Made by a program: the position numbers and the translations under genes. Shown here in pieces: positions 3,024 to 11,624 of a DNA stretch of 64,000 bases. The notes under the pieces are model-generated. The model ran no database searches. It saw only the letters and a program-made list of their open reading frames with translations, and was not told the DNA's origin. Location of the stretch: the IMG/VR virus record IMGVR_UViG_3300038673_000493, positions 1 through 64,000 of that record. One strand, written 5' to 3'. How positions within the stretch are numbered: position 1 is the first letter of the stretch; each line of letters starts with the position of its first letter. The DNA comes from a virus (Duplodnaviria; Caudoviricetes).

Positions 3024-3929
3024 ATGGAAAACACAGAAATGAACAAAGCAGTGGTAAATGAAATGGTAGAGTTGAATCCTGTGGAAAGAGCGGAGATCAG
3101 AAATCGGTATCCTGAAACGTATTTTCCTAATCCTGTCAAAGAGCCTATTTGGTATGGCAGAAGGGAGCATACAAGGATTGTTGAAAAGAATGCCATTATT
3201 GATCAGAATCTCCGTCCAGATCAGGAAAAGCCGACAGTTTTTGGAATTTGCAGTGACCATTACAAAGTTGTCTTTTATGAGGACATTGTGAAAATGGTTG
3301 AAGGTGTTGTTGACACAATCAAAGATTTCGGGGAAATCAAGATCAATCCGTACACTTATGCTGATGGTGGAAGATTGCGTATAAATCTGTCTTTCCCGGA
3401 AAAGAAAATCAATATCGTAAAAGGGGATAACATCATCCCGAAAATTGAAATCTTTTCCTCTTATGATTTGTCAACAATGCTGAAAGGACGCTTCGGGGCA
3501 TTTCAGTTGAAATGCACAAATGGAATGGGTGTTTGGAAAACATTCAAGAAATTTGCCAAACGTCACCTGCAAAATCTTCATCTGTCAGAATTGGAAGTTT
3601 CCATCATTGAAGGCATTGAAGTATTTGCACTTCAAGCAACAATGTGGAAAGAATGGGCTACTTTGAAGATTCCCCAGAAAGTCTATGAAGAAATCTGGAC
3701 CGATCTTCCTTTCAGTCCTACAGAAAAAGAGCGGATTGAAGCACTTCCCGAAATTGGCACGAAACTGCTTCTTCCGGATGCGTTGAAATCGAATGATTTG
3801 AATGTTTGGTCATTCAATTCTGTTCTGACCCAGTTTGCAACTCATGAGGTCAAAAGTGAACTTCGCAGGATTGAACTTGAACCAATCATTGCTCGTTCAA
3901 TGGAAAAACTCTACGATAGATTACACTAA
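3024..3929 (+). CDS. DUF932/DUF945-family phage protein
   Basis: YKVVFYEDIV and SYDLS...GAFQLKCTNGM motifs typical of the family. Confidence 0.75.
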   Translation: MENTEMNKAVVNEMVELNPVERAEIRNRYPETYFPNPVKEPIWYGRREHTRIVEKNAIIDQNLRPDQEKPTVFGICSDHYKVVFYEDIVKMVEGVVDTIKDFGEIKINPYTYADGGRLRINLSFPEKKINIVKGDNIIPKIEIFSSYDLSTMLKGRFGAFQLKCTNGMGVWKTFKKFAKRHLQNLHLSELEVSIIEGIEVFALQATMWKEWATLKIPQKVYEEIWTDLPFSPTEKERIEALPEIGTKLLLPDALKSNDLNVWSFNSVLTQFATHEVKSELRRIELEPIIARSMEKLYDRLH

Positions 3930-3931
3930 TT

Positions 3932-3989
3932 GCAGAGGGGGCGGAGCATTTGCTCCGTCTAATGCACAATTCCAGTCCCAAGTCTGGAA
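3932..3989 (+). ncRNA. Twister ribozyme 7; predicted cleavage U3960/A3961
   Basis: GCA-GAGGG-[GGCGGAGCA/UGCUCCGUC]-UAA-UGC-AC-AA-[UUCCAG-UCCCAAGU-CUGGAA]. Confidence 0.93.
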
Positions 3990-4015
3990 ATAAAACTGAA
4001 AGGAGAAAGAGAGAA

Positions 4016-4423
4016 ATGGTCATGAATATTGATGTAAAAACGGGCATTCATTATGGAGTAATTCATCATGCAAAAGTAGGACAGGCGTGGTATGATGAAT
4101 CAGATGCTTTGTTTCCAAACAAAGAAAATGGTGAAGATGATGATGATTTTGAACCTATAGGATTTTACATTGACAAAGATGGTTATGAAGCGTGTCAAGG
4201 TAATGATGATTGTGATATATTCATTACAAAATCACCGTTTTATACCATTTGTAAATTATGTTCCCCGTGTGCTCCGAATGCGGGCTACATAATGGATTCA
4301 GATCCTAAAGGATACAAAACGTATTGCTTTGGCCATGATTGGTTTGAAACAAATCAAGCACCTTATCCTGTTTATGATGTAAAAACGGGATTTCTTGTTC
4401 CGATCTTGGCAAAAGAAGATTAA
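4016..4423 (+). CDS. Hypothetical protein (CKLCSPCAP motif; start corrected to 4016)
   Basis: SD AAAGGAG before ATG 4016; the track start at 3950 lies inside ribozyme 7. Confidence 0.7.
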   Translation: MVMNIDVKTGIHYGVIHHAKVGQAWYDESDALFPNKENGEDDDDFEPIGFYIDKDGYEACQGNDDCDIFITKSPFYTICKLCSPCAPNAGYIMDSDPKGYKTYCFGHDWFETNQAPYPVYDVKTGFLVPILAKED

Positions 4424-4430
4424 CATTCTT

Positions 4431-4488
4431 GCAGAGGGCTCCATCAGAAATGATGGAGTAATGCACAGTCTCGGTCCCAAGTCCGAGA
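4431..4488 (+). ncRNA. Twister ribozyme 8; predicted cleavage U4459/A4460
   Basis: GCA-GAGGG-[CUCCAUCA-GAAA-UGAUGGAG]-UAA-UGC-AC-AG-[UCUCGG-UCCCAAGU-CCGAGA]. Confidence 0.93.
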
Positions 4489-4515
4489 AATAAAATCGAA
4501 AGGAGAAAGAGAGAT

Positions 4516-4812
4516 ATGAAAAAGTATTTGATTACCATCTTGGTAATTTTGCTCACAATTCCTACAATGGCAAATGCTTTTATTTGCGGAAACAATTTGG
4601 CCAGTGAAGGAATGAGTAAATACCAAATTTTAAGCAACTGTGGTTCTCCTGCTTTAAAAGAACGTGTTGGTGCAGACTATTCAAATAGTTCCTACCGTAT
4701 CATTGAGAAATGGCTTTATGTCGTCAATGAATATGGAAACCAACAAATGTATCTTATTGAATTTAATGGAGACGGAATTGCTGTCAAAATCGACTACATT
4801 GGAAAAAGATAA
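4516..4812 (+). CDS. DUF2845-family exported protein
   Basis: Signal peptide, then FICGNNLASEGMSKYQILSNCGSP...IEKWLY...YLIEF pattern. Confidence 0.7.
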   Translation: MKKYLITILVILLTIPTMANAFICGNNLASEGMSKYQILSNCGSPALKERVGADYSNSSYRIIEKWLYVVNEYGNQQMYLIEFNGDGIAVKIDYIGKR

Positions 4813-4813
4813 T

Positions 4814-4871
4814 GCAGAGAGCAGGAACAGAAATGTTCCTGTAATGCACAATCCCAGTCTCAAGTCTGGGA
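4814..4871 (+). ncRNA. Twister ribozyme 9; predicted cleavage U4842/A4843
   Basis: GCA-GAGAG-[CAGGAACA-GAAA-UGUUCCUG]-UAA-UGC-AC-AA-[UCCCAG-UCUCAAGU-CUGGGA]. Confidence 0.93.
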
Positions 4872-4897
4872 AATAAAGAGAAAAGGAGAAAGAAAGA

Positions 4898-5389
4898 ATG
4901 GCGGAAGAAGAATTTACTTTTGAAGGCAGGGAAATCACAGTACAATTCAACAACAAACCTTTTGAAGTCCGTTTAGAAAAATCAAGATACAAAAATGGAC
5001 AATTAGCAGTATTTGGAGTTAATCCTGATGATGATGAAATTTTTTGTGAATTGACCATTCATATTCCAGATTTAAAAAATCCTGGTAATAAAATTTATGT
5101 TTGGGATTGTATACTTCACAAAAATTTCATTGAAGCATTAAAAAATTCAGGATGGTTTAAAACAACAAGTGTTTCTTTTTATTCTGAAACAGTAATGGGG
5201 TTCACAGAAGTTTGGGAACCTACTGTTGAAAAACAGAATGCCCGAAAACAATGCTATTCAAAATGGAAATGTCCTCTATGTAAACATATCATAGAAGGCC
5301 TAACTTTTGTTGAAATAGCAATTATAGGGACACCTATATGCAAAAATTGTGATATGCCTATGGACTTTTCTGAAGAATACATTAAGTAA
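4898..5389 (+). CDS. Hypothetical protein, DUF4313-like N-terminus with C-terminal CxxC...CxxC zinc ribbon
   Basis: YKNGQLAV...FCELTIHI; CPLC and CKNC. Confidence 0.55.
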   Translation: MAEEEFTFEGREITVQFNNKPFEVRLEKSRYKNGQLAVFGVNPDDDEIFCELTIHIPDLKNPGNKIYVWDCILHKNFIEALKNSGWFKTTSVSFYSETVMGFTEVWEPTVEKQNARKQCYSKWKCPLCKHIIEGLTFVEIAIIGTPICKNCDMPMDFSEEYIK

Positions 5390-5398
5390 GGAGAATCC

Positions 5399-5548
5399 AT
5401 GAAATCTAAAGATGAAATCCGAAAAGTCAATTGTGTTTGTTTTCTTTGTACCAGAAGAAGCAAAAAATCCTTCAACGTAACAAAACAAAGATGGTGTAAA
5501 AAGTACAAATGTCCTTGTGGTTCAACCTCTTTTAGTTGGTTTGTTTAG
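5399..5548 (+). CDS. Small Cys-rich protein (49 aa, not in the ORF track)
   Basis: SD TAAGGAG; MKSKDEIRKVNCVCFLC...CKKYKCPCGSTSFSWFV*; its TAG overlaps ribozyme 10. Confidence 0.6.
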   Translation: MKSKDEIRKVNCVCFLCTRRSKKSFNVTKQRWCKKYKCPCGSTSFSWFV

Positions 5549-5605
5549 CAGAGGGGCAGGAATGAAAGTTCCTGCTAATGCACAATCCCAGTCCCAAGTC
5601 TGGGA
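5548..5605 (+). ncRNA. Twister ribozyme 10; predicted cleavage U5576/A5577
   Basis: GCA-GAGGG-[GCAGGAAU-GAAA-GUUCCUGC]-UAA-UGC-AC-AA-[UCCCAG-UCCCAAGU-CUGGGA]. Confidence 0.93.
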
Positions 5606-5632: not shown

Positions 5633-6094
5633 ATGTCAGAAGAAATCAAAGAAGAAAGTTATATGGTGGAAAAAAGTAAAATTTTGGAGGCTGCTAAAAA
5701 ATGCGCCACAACAAAGGCGGCTTTGAAAATTTTATTCCCAGAAGCATTTAAAGGAATTTACTACAGATCGGGAGATTTATTTGCCGTTACTGATAAACAA
5801 GCTTTGAATACAAGGTTGACAATCAGTAAATATTTCAAGGATGAAGAAGGTATTCTTGAAATAGGCACAAGAGTTCATTTAGGAACAGTCCGAATTGCTG
5901 TGAATCATTGTGTGGTGCTAATTCATGATGGAGGACAATATCAATACCGACTTGTTCATTTGGCTACAGGTTATGCTTTTAATAATAAAAGTTATAAAAG
6001 AACTGATGAAGGTATTGAAATTCCGTCCGAAGATTTATCAGGATTGGTGCTTTGTTTTGAAGGACTTTCAAAACCCAAAACAACACCAGTTTAA
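5633..6094 (+). CDS. Hypothetical protein
   Basis: SD before ATG 5633; its stop abuts the hammerhead. Confidence 0.7.
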   Translation: MSEEIKEESYMVEKSKILEAAKKCATTKAALKILFPEAFKGIYYRSGDLFAVTDKQALNTRLTISKYFKDEEGILEIGTRVHLGTVRIAVNHCVVLIHDGGQYQYRLVHLATGYAFNNKSYKRTDEGIEIPSEDLSGLVLCFEGLSKPKTTPV

Positions 6095-6095
6095 A

Positions 6096-6160
6096 ATCGA
6101 AACCGGCAGAAATGCCGGTCTAAACAAGATGGCAACTTGTTTACTGAAGATGATAAGCCA
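6096..6160 (+). ncRNA. Type II hammerhead ribozyme; predicted cleavage after GUC at C6120
   Basis: AUC-GAAA-[III CCGGCA-GAAA-UGCCGG]-UC^-[I UAAACAAG-AUGGCAA-CUUGUUUA]-CUGAAGA-U-GAU-AA-GCCA. Stem II is AUC/GAU; loop I UGGC can pair with the 3' GCCA as a pseudoknot. Confidence 0.8.
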
Positions 6161-6187
6161 AAATAATTTGAAAGGAGAAAGAAAGAA

Positions 6188-6346
6188 ATGAAAGTACCAA
6201 AAGGAATGAAAGAAGTAAAAGAAAATTCGGTTTTTGGAGAATGTGAGGACAGAAAAGGTTCCGGAGAATTTGAAGAATTTGAAAAAAGGAATAATTTGAA
6301 AGATTCGGAATTTCTTTTTGCTGAAATCGCAAAAAAAAGGAACTGA
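6188..6346 (+). CDS. Small hypothetical protein (52 aa, not in the ORF track)
   Basis: SD AAAGGAG after the hammerhead; MKVPKGMKEVKENSVFGECEDRK...KKRN*. Confidence 0.55.
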   Translation: MKVPKGMKEVKENSVFGECEDRKGSGEFEEFEKRNNLKDSEFLFAEIAKKRN

Positions 6347-6521
6347 TAAAAGCCTTCGTTTTATCGGGAATTTATCAAATCCGATCAACATTATGGGGGT
6401 ATTGGAATTTTTATATTCCTTACATCCAGAAATTTTTCTATCATTCGTAGCATCTCATACCAGAGACTTAACAGAGGTTGTAAATTCAATGATGGAAAAT
6501 TCTTCAAAAGAACCACATTAA
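6318..6521 (+). CDS. Hypothetical protein (start uncertain)
   Basis: ORF track; its TAA abuts ribozyme 11. Confidence 0.45.
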   Translation: MLKSQKKGTDKSLRFIGNLSNPINIMGVLEFLYSLHPEIFLSFVASHTRDLTEVVNSMMENSSKEPH

Positions 6522-6524
6522 TTT

Positions 6525-6581
6525 GCAGAGGGCTCCGACATTAAGTCGGAGTAATGCACAATCTCGGTCCCAAGTCCGAGA
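6525..6581 (+). ncRNA. Twister ribozyme 11; predicted cleavage U6552/A6553
   Basis: GCA-GAGGG-[CUCCGAC-AUUAA-GUCGGAG]-UAA-UGC-AC-AA-[UCUCGG-UCCCAAGU-CCGAGA]. Confidence 0.93.
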
Positions 6582-6606
6582 AATAGAGAGAGAAAGGAGA
6601 GAGAAA

Positions 6607-7401
6607 ATGTATTTGCAAATCACCAATAAATGCAACATGAATTGCCGACATTGTGGTTTTTCTTGCAATCGAAAAGGAATTCACATGGAATGGGAAACTT
6701 TCATCAATGCAATTCAATTTATCCGTGATCGTGATGATGAAACAATTACTATAGGTGGTGGAGAACCTACTTTGCATCCAAGATTTTTTGACATACTAAA
6801 AATCTGTTTGGATGATTTTAATTATGTTTGGATGGCTACTAATGGCAGCCAAACAAATGCTATGATTAGATTAGCCAACATCATAGATAATTGTGATTAT
6901 GAATCATTTTCACGGGGAGATTATTGCACTTGTGAAGAAGATCCTGACGATTGTGAATGCTGGCCAGATAAAGCAATCTATCAAGATGGTAAATTAACAG
7001 TTGCTTTATCTCTTGATTATTTCCATTCCCCAATTAATGATAAAATAGTTGAATTGTGGAAAAACAGAAGCAAATGTTCCAGTTTCAATTTCCATAATAA
7101 CTATCAAATTAGGGATGTGACAATTAGTCATAGTGGCGTAGTTAAATCAGGTCGTGCAATTCGATCGGGTGTTTGGCAAGATGAATCAAATTGTATATGT
7201 CCGAATACTCATATTGCTCCTAATGGAGATGTGAAGTTATGTGGTTGCAGAAATTCTCCTATATTGGGAAATGTCAATACTTCAGTAGATGATGAATCCC
7301 TTGAATTTTTTAGGGATAATGATATTGATTGTATAAAAAACATGACTAAAAAATTAAGGAGGATATATGAAACGAAGGCATATCAAACATTATCTGATTG
7401 A
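6607..7401 (+). CDS. Radical SAM protein with C-terminal SPASM/twitch-like cysteines (start corrected to 6607)
   Basis: YLQITNKCNMNCRHC (CxxxCxxC), GGGEPTLHP, ATNG. Confidence 0.85.
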   Translation: MYLQITNKCNMNCRHCGFSCNRKGIHMEWETFINAIQFIRDRDDETITIGGGEPTLHPRFFDILKICLDDFNYVWMATNGSQTNAMIRLANIIDNCDYESFSRGDYCTCEEDPDDCECWPDKAIYQDGKLTVALSLDYFHSPINDKIVELWKNRSKCSSFNFHNNYQIRDVTISHSGVVKSGRAIRSGVWQDESNCICPNTHIAPNGDVKLCGCRNSPILGNVNTSVDDESLEFFRDNDIDCIKNMTKKLRRIYETKAYQTLSD

Positions 7402-7618
7402 ATCCCCGGTCATTAAAGGCAAAGAAGGTGATGAAGTCAAATATCCCGTTAGTTGTAACTACAATGGAGGCATTGTAATTAACGGAAAATGGTATGACGG
7501 CTTCATCGTAGGACAACCATTGTTACCAAAAGGATTAGAATTGCAAAGCATCGGAGTTGGGCTACAGCTTAATGCTACACCACCTCTAGCAACTGCCATT
7601 CTAGTCAGAAAAAAGTGA
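7367..7618 (+). CDS. Hypothetical protein
   Basis: ORF track, overlapping gene chain. Confidence 0.5.
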   Translation: MKRRHIKHYLIESPVIKGKEGDEVKYPVSCNYNGGIVINGKWYDGFIVGQPLLPKGLELQSIGVGLQLNATPPLATAILVRKK

Positions 7619-7860
7619 ACCAAATGCATATCATTCACGAATCCACAATTAGAAACGAAAGCGGAGTTATTGAGATAACAATATTTATTGTCAATAAAAA
7701 AACGGCTAAACGCTATACCTATGGATTGTCTAGTTCATGGGCAGCGGAACAGTTTCACAAATGGTATCGTAAAGGCAGAGTTTTTCATGGAAAAGCCCTG
7801 CAATTTTTAAAAAATTTTCAATTGAAAGGAGAAAGAGAGTATGGAGAAAACCCCCGATAA
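7615..7860 (+). CDS. Hypothetical protein
   Basis: ORF track, GTGA overlap with the previous ORF. Confidence 0.55.
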   Translation: MNQMHIIHESTIRNESGVIEITIFIVNKKTAKRYTYGLSSSWAAEQFHKWYRKGRVFHGKALQFLKNFQLKGEREYGENPR

Positions 7861-8164
7861 CGCCTTGAATAAATTTTGGAGACCGTCATGGCCGAAAACT
7901 GTAATTCCGAGATACAGAAAGCTTTTGTTCAGATCAAATTGGTACATCTATGATTACAAGAAATTTGATCTGGTAAAAGACATTGCAGGTAATGTAATTA
8001 CAGTTTCCGATATAAAAAACCATTTCGGACAAACAGAAGAACAAAGGAACTTTTACAAAATTTTTGAGGAGCTTGTTCGAACTGATATGGTCAATCAAAT
8101 GACTTTAATCAAGAACAGGGAAGAGGCAATAATTGCCAACCGTAAAAAAGAAGGATTTGGCTGA
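7841..8164 (+). CDS. Hypothetical protein
   Basis: SD AAAGGAG. Confidence 0.6.
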   Translation: MEKTPDNALNKFWRPSWPKTVIPRYRKLLFRSNWYIYDYKKFDLVKDIAGNVITVSDIKNHFGQTEEQRNFYKIFEELVRTDMVNQMTLIKNREEAIIANRKKEGFG

Positions 8165-8216
8165 TACCTTATAAAATATTATCAGCAAATAAAAAGAGAA
8201 AAGGAGAAAGAAGCTT

Positions 8217-8423
8217 ATGGGAAAGATTAGAGTAGCATGGAACAAGAACCATACGAAAAGTGTGGTCTTGCAAAAGCTGAAGGAATTTTCTATTAACGAA
8301 AACCATGATAATACCTTCAGAGTCAGTGGATGGTACAACAAAGAAAATGCTTTTATTTTCGGTGATTTCAATACAAGAGAAGAAGCCGAAACATATCTGC
8401 AAGAAATCCACAATTTATTTTAA
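8217..8423 (+). CDS. Hypothetical protein
   Basis: SD AAAGGAG. Confidence 0.6.
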   Translation: MGKIRVAWNKNHTKSVVLQKLKEFSINENHDNTFRVSGWYNKENAFIFGDFNTREEAETYLQEIHNLF

Positions 8424-8452
8424 AATAACCTGGAAAAAAGCTTGACAAAAGT

Positions 8453-8770
8453 ATGACTAACAACTACAAAAACAATGAGGATTGCATGACTAAATACACC
8501 ATTTACCCTTGTACCGAATTAACATGGTTAAGACTGTTTAGGCGTATCAAAAAAGTGGCTAAAGAATCAAACATGTTCATTTCTGTAATAGATATTAAAC
8601 CTCAAGAAATACCGAAAGAAGTACAAGTCAAAATGAATCCATTAATTCACACAAAAAATTGGAAGAAGAAAACAAATTCTTTTGTGCCTAATCACATTAC
8701 AACAATCATTTTGGAGAATGAACAAGATGAACAAAACCAAAAACGTCAGAAATTCTTGTCCGAAACCTAA
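8453..8770 (+). CDS. Hypothetical protein
   Basis: ORF track; GAGG SD before the internal ATG of MTKY. Confidence 0.5.
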   Translation: MTNNYKNNEDCMTKYTIYPCTELTWLRLFRRIKKVAKESNMFISVIDIKPQEIPKEVQVKMNPLIHTKNWKKKTNSFVPNHITTIILENEQDEQNQKRQKFLSET

Positions 8771-9050
8771 GAAAATTTTACATAAAAGAAATCCTGAAAA
8801 ATATGAAAAAGAAGCTAAAGAACTCCTATCAATAACTCGTTTGCGAACTTATATGGACGGAGAACTTTGGAGAGAGATTCAAGAAATTTCCAGACTTCTT
8901 GAAAAATCGGTAGTATCACACAAAAAATCGGTGGAGCAAATCGTTGTTGACACAAAGAAAATAATGAAAGAGCGGGAAAATCTTTATGTTTCGCAAGCAA
9001 TTGGTTTTCTTTACACCGATTTTTTCTATATTTTGAAATCAAATAAGTAA
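8718..9050 (+). CDS. Hypothetical basic protein
   Basis: SD GGAG before ATG 8718; contains PKPKKILHKR. Confidence 0.55.
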   Translation: MNKMNKTKNVRNSCPKPKKILHKRNPEKYEKEAKELLSITRLRTYMDGELWREIQEISRLLEKSVVSHKKSVEQIVVDTKKIMKERENLYVSQAIGFLYTDFFYILKSNK

Positions 9051-9063
9051 AGGAGGAAAGACC

Positions 9064-9291
9064 ATGATGATGAAAAAGAAGGCATTAACTCCGAAATCTC
9101 TAACGCCGAAGGTAGAAAAGCCTAAAGACAGAATGCTTTGGGTTCGTTTGCCAGATGCTCTTAACAAGAGATTTCAAAAACAATGTGAACGATTGTCAGT
9201 AGGAGACGGTACGCTTGCAAGAATGGCAATTGTGAAACTTGTTGAGGAAGAGGAAGCGAAAGAGCGTGAACTAGCAAGAAACAAATCTTAA
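9064..9291 (+). CDS. Ribbon-helix-helix (CopG/Arc-like) DNA-binding protein
   Basis: MLWVRLPDALNKRFQKQCERLSVGDGTLARMAIVKLVE fits the strand-helix-helix pattern. Confidence 0.55.
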   Translation: MMMKKKALTPKSLTPKVEKPKDRMLWVRLPDALNKRFQKQCERLSVGDGTLARMAIVKLVEEEEAKERELARNKS

Positions 9292-9331
9292 ACCTTTAAC
9301 ACCAAGAAGTAAAGAGAAAGAGAGGGAAATT

Positions 9332-9805
9332 ATGGAATGTAAATACTGTGCCTTTTTCCAAGAATCTCCGACCAGATTCGGAAAAGGGGAAGAAAGGTTC
9401 TGTAATCATGTTCATCGGGTGGTTTCAGAAAATAAAGAAATTTGTGAAGATGGTTTTGAAGCTTATTATTTATTCTGGTGTGAAAAATCTAATGCTTGGT
9501 TAGATTTACCTGTATGTTCTGCTCGACAATCTAAAGGATATTCAGAATGTTCTAAATGCAGACAAAAACAGGACATTATGGAAATCAGAAGATTCATGGG
9601 CAGAAAAGCACGATTGAATGGGACTGCTCCGAAACCTATCATTAAGAAAAAAGAGAGTGAAGAAAAGGAGCCGGAAAAACCGAAACCTAAAATCATTCTG
9701 CATAAGAAACAACCTGAGGAAAAACCTAAGCCCAAAATGATCTTACACAAGAAGGCCAAAGAGTCAGAAATTCCTAAACCTATCAAAAAGATAATTAAGA
9801 AGTAG
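9332..9805 (+). CDS. Cys-rich hypothetical protein with Lys/Pro-rich tail
   Basis: Several CxxC pairs; repeated KPKPKxILHKK. Confidence 0.6.
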   Translation: MECKYCAFFQESPTRFGKGEERFCNHVHRVVSENKEICEDGFEAYYLFWCEKSNAWLDLPVCSARQSKGYSECSKCRQKQDIMEIRRFMGRKARLNGTAPKPIIKKKESEEKEPEKPKPKIILHKKQPEEKPKPKMILHKKAKESEIPKPIKKIIKK

Positions 9806-9814
9806 GAGGATTTC

Positions 9815-10165
9815 ATGTCAGGAAAGAAAGAGAATGTGGAAGATGCCGCTTACATATTTTGGAGCAACACCGTTGATATTTATGATGTAAGCATTCTCCA
9901 AGAAGTTTCTGAAATACATTCGATTAATCCAGAAACTCTTTTAATTGAAAAAGATAATCTGAAAAATTCTTTAACTAAAGAATGCAGAATTGTGGCTGAT
10001 ACCATACTAAATTTGCCAGAAGAAATGTTTCTTGTGAATGGCAAACTAAAGAAAACAGCCCTGAAAAAAATCCTTAAACAGAAATTAGGATGGTCAAACA
10101 CCAAGATCAATCGCATCAACGAAAGTTTGGCTAGACAATTATTGGACATGGGATATTCAGTTTAA
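9815..10165 (+). CDS. Hypothetical protein, possible HTH / sigma-region-4-like
   Basis: SD AGGAGG; helical C-terminus; the function is a weak guess. Confidence 0.45.
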   Translation: MSGKKENVEDAAYIFWSNTVDIYDVSILQEVSEIHSINPETLLIEKDNLKNSLTKECRIVADTILNLPEEMFLVNGKLKKTALKKILKQKLGWSNTKINRINESLARQLLDMGYSV

Positions 10166-10192
10166 TTCCGCTAAACATTTTTAACAAAATTC

Positions 10193-10201
10193 TGCTATAA
10201 T
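10193..10201 (+). promoter_or_regulatory. Extended -10 promoter element TGCTATAAT before the helicase
   Basis: Same motif recurs intergenically at 23141 (TGCTACAAT), 28170 and 34670. Confidence 0.6.
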
Positions 10202-10220
10202 AAAGAAAAGAGGGAAATCT

Positions 10221-11624
10221 ATGCCTGAATTTTGGATTAAATTTTTAGATCCGATAGAAAGCAAAATGTCTCCGGCACTTTATAAAGTGATTAAAGATCA
10301 TTTATCGTATCCTGCCGTCTATTACAGACAATCTCCGTTTAAGAAAAAACGGGAAGAGTTCATGAAAAGAACTTTTATTGGACACGATAAAGAAGGGTGG
10401 TTTTTCTATACAGGATTTGTTCCGAGAGTGAGAGAATTTTGCATCAAAAACAAAATTGCCTTACATGAAGAAATTGAAACATACGGTTTAACTTATAAAG
10501 AACCAGCTCTACCTATGGGTATTGATGCACGATCATTTCAGATTGATATGGTTGAAAAAGTTATTGAATTAGAACGGGGAATATTAAAAGCTCCGACAGG
10601 TACGGGGAAAACAATTTTAGGTCTTTACGTTATTTCTTGTTTAGACGGACTTGGGAATATTCTATGGCTTTGTCATACCAAAGATTTAATGTATCAAACA
10701 GCAGATGAAGCAGTTAAATGGTTTGGTTCAGAAAATGTTGGCAGAGTAGGAGACAGTCAATTACAACTCGGAAGATTTTTTACTTCTGCCACAAGACAAA
10801 CTTTCAAAGAACATGCAGAACAATGGGGAACTGAATATGACATGATTGTTTTAGATGAAGCTCACCATCTTTCTGCCTTTCCTTATCGTGATCGTTATGG
10901 AAATGAAGTTGGAGAATATGGTTGGATATTCAAGAGAATCTTTGCTCCAATTCGTATAGGATTAACTGCTACAATGCCTGATAAGATTGAATCAAAGATG
11001 GCAATGGAAGCTTTAATCGGTCCTATTTTAGAAGAATTTACAATCAAAGAAGCAGAGGATCAAGGGTATATGGCAAAACCAATTATCAAGATTAAAAAAA
11101 TTCCAGCATCTGAAAATGTCAAACAGTATAGAAAATATTCCGATGTATATGAATGGGGAATTGTCCGGCGTTTAGAACGAAACAGAATCATCATTGATAT
11201 TGTCCAACAACATCAAGAAAAAAATGAATCGGTTCTAATCGTTGTGAATAAAATTGATCATGGAGTTCTTCTCAAAAATCTCGGAGACAGAAGAAATCTT
11301 GAAATAGAATTTATTCATGGGGAAACAGATTCAGCAACCAGAGCATCCGCTAAAAAATTATTGAACAGCAAACGTTTGAAATGCGTTATTTGCACTTCAG
11401 TTTGGAAAGAGGGAGTAAATATTCCCGAATTAAATGTAATCATAAATGCGGCTGGTGGAAAATCTGAACTAAATACATTGCAAGTAATCGGTAGAGGATT
11501 AAGAAAAACAGACAACAAGACCGAATTGATTATCTATGATTTTTTTGATCCTTCTCATCATTATCTCATTTCTCATTTTGGAGAACGTCTAACTCTTTAT
11601 ATGGAAATGGGATGGATCAGCTAA
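10221..11624 (+). CDS. Superfamily 2 DEAD/H helicase (UvsW/XPB-like)
   Basis: APTGTGKT, LDEAHH, GLTAT, QVIGRGLR. Confidence 0.92.
   Translation: MPEFWIKFLDPIESKMSPALYKVIKDHLSYPAVYYRQSPFKKKREEFMKRTFIGHDKEGWFFYTGFVPRVREFCIKNKIALHEEIETYGLTYKEPALPMGIDARSFQIDMVEKVIELERGILKAPTGTGKTILGLYVISCLDGLGNILWLCHTKDLMYQTADEAVKWFGSENVGRVGDSQLQLGRFFTSATRQTFKEHAEQWGTEYDMIVLDEAHHLSAFPYRDRYGNEVGEYGWIFKRIFAPIRIGLTATMPDKIESKMAMEALIGPILEEFTIKEAEDQGYMAKPIIKIKKIPASENVKQYRKYSDVYEWGIVRRLERNRIIIDIVQQHQEKNESVLIVVNKIDHGVLLKNLGDRRNLEIEFIHGETDSATRASAKKLLNSKRLKCVICTSVWKEGVNIPELNVIINAAGGKSELNTLQVIGRGLRKTDNKTELIIYDFFDPSHHYLISHFGERLTLYMEMGWIS

Follow-up and report, generated by a model that had tools for sequence, protein, structure and literature searches.

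The element discussed here lies at positions 6096-6160 of the window, i.e., the whole stretch of 64,000 nucleotides that was analyzed. This stretch makes up the initial 64 kb of a virus record that is 90,579 bp long, has a GC content of 34%, and carries terminal repeats of 55 bp. The element occupies a 93-nt junction (6095-6187) between two plus-strand genes: the upstream one (5633-6094 in the list of open reading frames, with the stop codon UAA at 6092-6094) codes for a 153-residue protein with no Pfam or PHROG family, and the downstream one starts with an AUG at 6188 that is preceded by the Shine-Dalgarno sequence AAAGGAG at 6171-6177. The preceding slot holds a Twister-P5 ribozyme at 5547-5603 (plus strand; 56.3 bits in Rfam against a gathering score of 37.6) and the following slot holds another at 6524-6579 (plus strand; 53.8 bits). 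In all, 11 Rfam matches to Twister-P5 exceed the gathering score between 916 and 6579 of the window, and so do 9 further ones at the other end of the genome (86733-89810), such that 20 twisters and one hammerhead make up a single array. This array starts at 86733 of the genome, passes over the genome ends, and stops at 6579 (~10.4 kb), with the hammerhead as the sole non-twister among its 21 ribozymes. The block spanned by the array comprises ~24 small plus-strand genes, continuous across the genome ends, most of which belong to no family, the exceptions being DUF2786/DUF7168, DUF932, DUF2845, and radical SAM proteins. Nearly all the junctions of this block, with gaps of 79-118 nt, carry one twister each; the region thus has the organization of a ribozyme-punctuated phage operon, with several ribozyme motifs within a few kb at the junctions of co-directional genes.

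The initial annotation had described the junction after the upstream gene as devoid of a twister and the hammerhead as placed identically to the twisters. The Rfam search and the distances to the flanking codons agree on both points: the hammerhead begins 1 nt past the stop codon, with 27 nt between its end and the AUG, and the twisters begin at -2 to +6 nt relative to the stop, with a distance of 27-30 nt to the start codon in most cases (19 and 60 nt in two outliers) and a leader of the same type after them. Given this equivalent placement, two unrelated ribozyme folds can be said to occupy equivalent slots of one operon.

Read 5' to 3' on the plus strand, the element begins with the 3' strand of stem II (AUC at 6096-6098; A11.3, U11.2, and C11.1), followed by the core nucleotides G12, A13, and A14 (6099-6101), which are invariant in all the hammerheads aligned in this study. 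In the minimum-free-energy fold, stem III (6102-6119) is a 7-bp hairpin from A15.1 to U16.1 (A6102-U6119) with a GAAA tetraloop; it leads into C17 at 6120, the last position of the GUC triplet, after which the hammerhead consensus (PMC3088659) predicts the cut, i.e., between C6120 and U6121. Stem I (6121-6143) forms an 8-bp hairpin in the same fold, with the loop AUGGCAA at 6129-6135, and is followed by the core strand C3, U4, G5, A6, A7, G8, and A9 (CUGAAGA, 6144-6150), the general form of which, CUGANGA, is invariant across all aligned members. An extra U (6151) separates A9 from G10.1; it is succeeded by the 5' strand of stem II (GAU at 6152-6154; G10.1, A10.2, and U10.3), which pairs with AUC at 6096-6098, an AA linker (6155-6156), and the sequence GCCA (6157-6160), which constitutes the 3'-tail half of a 4-bp pseudoknot with UGGC at 6130-6133 in loop I. 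The conserved core is accordingly complete (C3 to A9, G12, A13, and A14, the A15.1-U16.1 pair, and C6120 as H17), and the pseudoknot supplies the tertiary contact between stems I and II; the extra U is its sole departure from the canonical form, which has no insertions in the core strands. By our own reading, no register that lacks this insertion gives a paired stem II. The annotation made from the letters alone had recognized a complete hammerhead core in this interval, and each of the parts that it listed is present, including the 8-bp stem I, the 3-bp stem II with an extra U after A9, and the complementarity between UGGC in loop I and the 3' GCCA; the stem III that it described also exists, but extends to 7 bp, beyond the 6 bp that it implied.

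The minimum-free-energy fold, which contains stems III and I, has z = -3.8, and the ribosome-binding site, 10 nt beyond the pseudoknot, is free in that fold. A type II hammerhead descriptor matches once in the 64 kb, both strands considered, and never in 200 dinucleotide shuffles (a looser descriptor yields 0.02 matches per shuffle); a chance origin of the motif is excluded. A9, the extra U, and G10.1 together spell an AUG (6150-6152), from which a frame of 13 codons runs to its end in the downstream AUGA; we consider it incidental, as the frame differs in the relative L008.

The family of the upstream protein is very small (8 clusters), and the hammerhead accompanies it in its closer members. 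The locus L007, whose flanking protein is 80% identical to that in the window, has the same hammerhead with a single compensatory change of C-G to U-A in stem III, and L008-L015 (76%) have an identical hammerhead situated one base nearer the stop codon; in both cases the surrounding flanks have diverged or differ. Across L007-L015 the canonical core (11 nt), the A15.1-U16.1 pair, the GUC triplet, and the pseudoknot are identical while the flanking proteins have diverged to 76-80% identity, and L007, L008, and L010 retain the twister array around the junction. In L016, at 57% identity, stems III (8 bp) and I (7 bp) of the type II hammerhead differ throughout from those of the window, and the element has the core CUGACGA, a weak stem II (U-U followed by C-G), and a different 4-bp pseudoknot (GACC with GGUC); its downstream gene is also homologous (E = 3e-7), and no Rfam-detectable twister lies near this junction. 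The initial annotation had raised the question of whether relatives carry a twister at the orthologous junction: none of them does, and a hammerhead is found there in L007, L008-L015, and L016. Since the hammerhead is inherited with both flanking genes even in L016, it is not a recent replacement of a twister. As judged from these comparisons, the gene-hammerhead-gene block has been passed on as a whole and extends to more distant relatives than the visible twister array does. The L016 block itself (6001-6837 of that locus) consists of two genes homologous to 5633-6094 and 6188-6521 of the window with the type II hammerhead between them; its genome is that of a different phage, with a Terminase_3 gene nearby and other neighboring genes, and no further ribozyme was detected in 12.5 kb.

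More distant homologs of the upstream protein (L017-L022) are followed by gaps of 11-17 nt or by overlapping genes, with no ribozyme. In one of these loci, L019, a Twister-P5 (514-574; 43.8 bits) occurs at another junction, and no ribozyme follows its upstream-protein homolog (49% identical). Searches of the viral collection with the proteins encoded at 5633-6091 and 151-912 returned no close relatives, and the exact DNA pattern of stem III had no match in that collection. A contig with a 91%-identical helicase (L003) begins ~170 nt downstream of the hammerhead, so that the junction falls outside it, and three loci with a 40%-identical helicase (L004-L006) have neither twisters nor a hammerhead upstream.

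The gene downstream of the hammerhead is split in the window into two plus-strand frames (6188-6346 and 6318-6521) by an extra A in a run of eight (6331-6338), and the apparent 177-nt gap before the twister at 6524 is a consequence of this split. L007, L008, and L010 have seven A residues at this point and one intact gene of 110 codons (110 aa); skipping one A in the window restores an open 110-codon frame, and one contig from an RNA library is without the extra A. The split could reflect a homopolymer assembly error, a recent frameshift, or slippage.

A search with the Rfam Hammerhead_II family, suggested along with the initial annotation, yielded no match even at E≤10. No hammerhead family reaches the gathering score in the window, none appears at E≤10 in local scans of 261 nt and 85 nt around the element, and the type II model (RF02276) has no match when run against the phage's own genome. 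The reach of this model can be gauged from the phage hammerheads described below: of the five in L063 it passes two canonical ones, by a narrow margin (39.8 and 39.2 bits; threshold, 37), and the elements of L028, L057, L068, L016, and the window all fall short. The consensus printed for it has a high GC content and a stem II of 2 bp, and hence an AU-rich member with an extra U would be expected to fall far below the model's threshold; moreover, to accommodate a 3-bp stem II the aligner must insert G10.1. Because the model is this narrow, the Rfam negative says little about the element. In the structure line of RF02276, positions 2-3 and the two positions after CUGAUGA are designated as stem II, with the C before GAAA (11.1) unpaired; this annotation looks to be one position out of register, which may add to its low sensitivity.

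Two covariance models were built, the seeds of which exclude every sequence of the window's clade. Model R1 was seeded with three L063 hammerheads, two of which pass RF02276 and none of which was chosen by a pattern derived from the window; it matches the window at 6096-6163 with 39.7 bits (E~1e-9), the next best match in 84 kb scoring 9.4 bits. The structure string of R1 has stem II one column out of register, which leaves its use as a detector intact, and model R2, seeded with 8 hammerheads from 4 unrelated phages, uses the corrected structure. R2 gives the window element 70.3 bits against 11.7 for the next match in the whole genome, a score that is partly circular, as 4 of its seeds were fetched with a pattern from the window's 3' tail; R1 avoids this circularity. 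R2 additionally has the L016 element as its top match in 95 kb, albeit a weak one (20.2 bits, E = 0.013). Since MAFFT misplaces stem III in divergent hammerheads, structure-aware covariance-model alignments were used in its place. Three other weak Rfam matches do not indicate membership: those to RyhB and rseX, on the minus strand, and that to freshwater-2 reflect a hairpin together with ribosome-binding-site or terminator-like features. The freshwater-2 match (6102-6190; 24 bits against a gathering score of 49.9, E = 0.084) involves a family whose consensus has two or three hairpins followed by AAAGGAGAAAA and an AUG; the likeness of layout is probably due to chance, and it raises the question of whether freshwater-2 is itself another phage junction element.

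A scan of the viral collection for the 3' signature CTGAAGATGNNAAGCCAAA uncovered true type II hammerheads in L028, L057, L063, and L068, the remaining hits being fortuitous and located in coding DNA. These hammerheads have stems that are unrelated to those of the window element, and all share with it a common layout, namely A9, an extra U, a 3-bp stem II, AA, and GCCA, with (U/C)GGC in loop I. L063, an unrelated GC-rich phage contig, has five type II hammerheads at successive gene junctions (3433-5462, plus strand). Another unrelated GC-rich viral contig, L082, bears seven type II hammerheads of the same GCCA-tail subfamily as those of L063 at successive gene junctions (~6790-10590, minus strand). 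The window hammerhead belongs to this phage subfamily, in which stem II has 3 bp, the linker is AA, and GCCA pairs with UGGC in loop I.

In an R2-guided alignment of 10 distinct sequences, in which the fit to the model structure itself favors pairing somewhat, standard pairs occupy 96% of the pair cells, as against 25-43% when the partners are slid by 1-3 columns. Double changes are seen in 15 of the 23 pairs, a count that 0 of 500 shuffles reach, and all three helices covary across the set: five of seven pairs of stem III and eight of nine model pairs of stem I show double changes across phages, and in stem II positions 11.2 and 11.3 covary with 10.2 and 10.3, G10.1-C11.1 being invariant. The pseudoknot pairs form in 95% of the cells and are likewise invariant, with no covariation within the GCCA subfamily; as a result, support for the pseudoknot comes only from the alternative pairing in L016 and from the literature. 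The eight RNA runs are represented by assembled contigs that account for small shares of the stretch, with fragmentary cover in the four that were compared. A 236-nt wastewater contig of run X2 matches the window at 6115-6149, i.e., the 3' strand of stem III, stem I, and CUGAAG, with 3 differences, and continues as TGGCAAGCCAAATCC...AGGAAGGAG; going by its letters, the contig seems to contain a relative of the window hammerhead that also has the inserted U, a stem II of another sequence, and another gene behind it.

The extra U after A9 was followed by repeating the scan with the same 3' signature and other contents after A9, a sampling that is biased by the patterns used. With no extra base, 36 loci were returned, at least 17 of which have true hammerheads, often in arrays of 3-7; with U, 47 loci were returned, true hammerheads being found in 4 in addition to the window's clade; with A, C, or G, none of the 80 loci returned, among at least 120 matches, has a true hammerhead. 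Counted as distinct elements, 25 are canonical, the U is present in 7, the window's clade accounting for 3 of these, and 1 has an A. This last, an L100 element with the core CUGAUGA, is the single exception among the 8 insert-bearing elements, in which the inserted base is otherwise U (7 of 8). The extra U recurs in L028, L057, L068, and two of the five L063 hammerheads, where three copies without it and two with it stand side by side in one array. One of these U-bearing L063 copies (4724-4798) is without U16.1 and has an extra C, and some U-bearing copies may accordingly be decaying. As far as the sampled phages go, the insertion is clearly a recurrent natural variant that is present in at least five phage lineages and is almost always U.

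The position between A9 and G10.1 is the metal-binding site of the hammerhead, and an extra U placed there could slow catalysis. In 2001 De la Pena and Flores reportedly found that a U at this very position raised the rate and that C and G were harmful. A metal contact of G10.1 is also mentioned in a later account (PMC5408937). A natural precedent is the (+) hammerhead of the viroid CChMVd, which has an extra A between A9 and G10.1 and is still active (De la Pena and Flores 2001, cited in PMC1636495). The two share a natural one-nucleotide insertion at exactly the same position; they differ in that the viroid ribozyme is of type III and its extra A has a second role in the viroid fold, whereas the window element is a phage type II hammerhead with a U. 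A possible second precedent comes from the hammerhead HH3 of a prophage of A. tumefaciens C58, the 3' half of which is given by a primer (Perreault et al., Table S1) and comprises stem I, the loop UUGGCAU, CUGAUGA, U, GGU, U, and GCCA. Like the window element, HH3, as known from this 3' half alone, has a U next to A9, a stem II strand of 3 nt, and, in its tail, a GCCA that could pair with loop I, and a tandem of three hammerheads including it gave the expected cleavage bands in vitro (PMC3088659, Figure S2 legend). Two matches to a shorter pattern, retrieved when HH3 was sought in genome and plasmid collections, were chance matches in coding DNA.

The remaining features of the element are those of type II hammerheads as described previously (PMC3088659; RF02276): stems I and III are capped and stem II is open and short, the core nucleotides are the same, and the cleavage site is of the NUH form; a pseudoknot of at least 4 bp likewise connects loop I with the nucleotides just after stem II (PMC3088659), and in such pseudoknotted members a stem II of 1-3 bp is normal (PMC3088659). 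The RF02276 consensus ends similarly in ...CUGAUGA-Gc-A-GCCaAA, with UGG..GCC in loop I. What sets the window element apart from this type is the extra U between A9 and G10.1, the AU-rich stem I, and the fact that it lies below a reportable Rfam score. Type II hammerheads have been shown to cleave in vivo in D. vulgaris (PMC8782182), and clustered hammerheads that flank prophage genes cleave in vitro (PMC3088659).

The array, too, has counterparts among the published phage and prophage ribozyme clusters, in which several ribozymes are found within a few kb, each junction between small genes of the same orientation holds one, different classes are mixed in one block, and processing of a long transcript has been proposed. 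Twisters and hammerheads commonly occur within a few kb of each other (PMC5408937), an association that led to the discovery of pistol, hatchet, and twister-sister (Roth 2014 and Weinberg 2015, per PMC5408937 and PMC4604425). In comparison with these clusters, the present array is unusually long and regular, with 20 twisters and 1 hammerhead over ~10.4 kb, and its single hammerhead is fixed at one junction across relatives. Both the pseudoknotted type II hammerheads with short stem II between phage genes (2011) and the mixed twister/hammerhead arrays were known beforehand; the points of interest, modest in themselves, are the fixation of one hammerhead in an array that otherwise consists of twisters, the recurrence of the U insertion, and the blind spot of Rfam.

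Three other readings of the element have to be weighed against that of a working hammerhead. The most serious of these holds that it is a hammerhead by descent that is dead or very slow, its core crippled by the U insert and the 3-bp stem II, and that it is kept for its hairpins, which might space the genes or stabilize the mRNA. That the insertion sits inside the catalytic core, that the Rfam model gives the element no score, and that a U-bearing L063 copy has a further defect at 16.1 would all suit such a relic, as would the strong reduction in activity caused by some core insertions, e.g., after A6 (Perreault et al., PMC3088659). We nevertheless consider it unlikely, since the 11 core nucleotides, the A15.1-U16.1 pair, the GUC triplet, and the pseudoknot have stayed identical despite flanking-protein identities of 76-80%, and the same U is found with intact cores in at least five lineages, the insert being U in 7 of 8 cases. 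Further, an extra nucleotide at A9/G10.1 is tolerated in CChMVd (PMC1636495), and a stem II of 1-3 bp is no defect in a pseudoknotted type II hammerhead (PMC3088659). We find still less reason to favor a conditional hammerhead, in which cleavage, or the stem II/pseudoknot structure near the ribosome-binding site, would be tuned to regulate the downstream gene in a way that the twister junctions are not. It is true that this is the only non-twister among the 21 ribozymes of the array, that slower phage variants have been speculated to be regulated (Perreault et al., PMC3088659), and that the U-insert form could by our reasoning have an altered metal dependence. But the element is a minimal one of 65 nt that carries neither an aptamer nor any other added domain, the ribosome-binding site is found 10 nt past the pseudoknot and is not sequestered in the predicted fold, and both placement and leader match those of the twister junctions; we hence regard such regulation as very unlikely.

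That there is no ribozyme at all, the locus being a terminator or a protective pair of hairpins with the core letters arising by coincidence, is an account for which one could cite the weak minus-strand matches to the terminator-bearing sRNAs RyhB and rseX and a terminator-like site on the minus strand (6108-6084). Such sites are no commoner here than in shuffled sequence, the genes in this region are all on the plus strand, and on that strand no U-run follows either hairpin. The absence of any descriptor match in 200 shuffles, the covariance-model matches at E~1e-9 or better, that of R1 in particular, the covariation of the helices, and the retention of the core in L016, where both hairpin sequences differ, together leave this last account effectively refuted.

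Taking motif, conservation, covariation, and placement as observed, we consider it likely that 6096-6160 is a type II hammerhead of the phage's early operon that cuts the polycistronic message; catalysis with the extra U in place and the fate of the mRNAs are what we infer from these. The element would be transcribed within the long early-operon transcript of the 90.6-kb phage and would cut itself, most likely between C6120 and U6121, in the same role as that envisaged for the twisters, viz., conversion of a polycistronic message into single-gene mRNAs. The upstream mRNA would then have the GC-rich stem III hairpin at its 3' end and carry a 2',3'-cyclic phosphate there; the downstream mRNA would have a 5'-OH at its start, with the stem I hairpin right next to it and, further on, the AAAGGAG ribosome-binding site and the AUG. 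Analogous hairpin-capped ends would be left by the twisters, which in our own reading present a P1 hairpin, a U-A cleavage step (the dinucleotide being that given in PMC5408937), P2, and a P4 hairpin. Processing of a long phage transcript into single-gene mRNAs was proposed for hammerhead clusters by Perreault et al. (PMC3088659), and this role of ribozyme clusters remains a proposal (PMC6765202).

The initial annotation had argued that the occurrence of an unrelated ribozyme class in a twister-like slot points to selection on cleavage itself and not on a repeated DNA sequence. Conservation in the orthologs, the covariance models, and the placement lend support to this argument, and the equivalence of the slots is consistent with cleavage, and not a DNA repeat, being selected; it is also the already accepted reading of such arrays (PMC3088659, PMC4604425, PMC5408937). 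More speculatively, hammerheads with a U at A9/G10.1 might constitute a distinct, selected subclass (e.g., with altered metal-ion use or rate) that Rfam misses, and the gene-hammerhead-gene cassette might be older than the twister array, with such arrays being built from gene-plus-ribozyme units of any class; we offer this combined scenario only tentatively.

Counts of hammerheads in phage arrays are probably too low, given that members that are AU-rich or have the U insert escape the Rfam type II model. The locus provides a natural comparison of two unrelated self-cleaving folds at geometrically equivalent junctions of one operon, and the hammerhead/twister pair is a ready test system for the effect of cutting on mRNA stability and translation. 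As such, it supports the view that what phages select is the cutting of RNA between genes and not a particular sequence.
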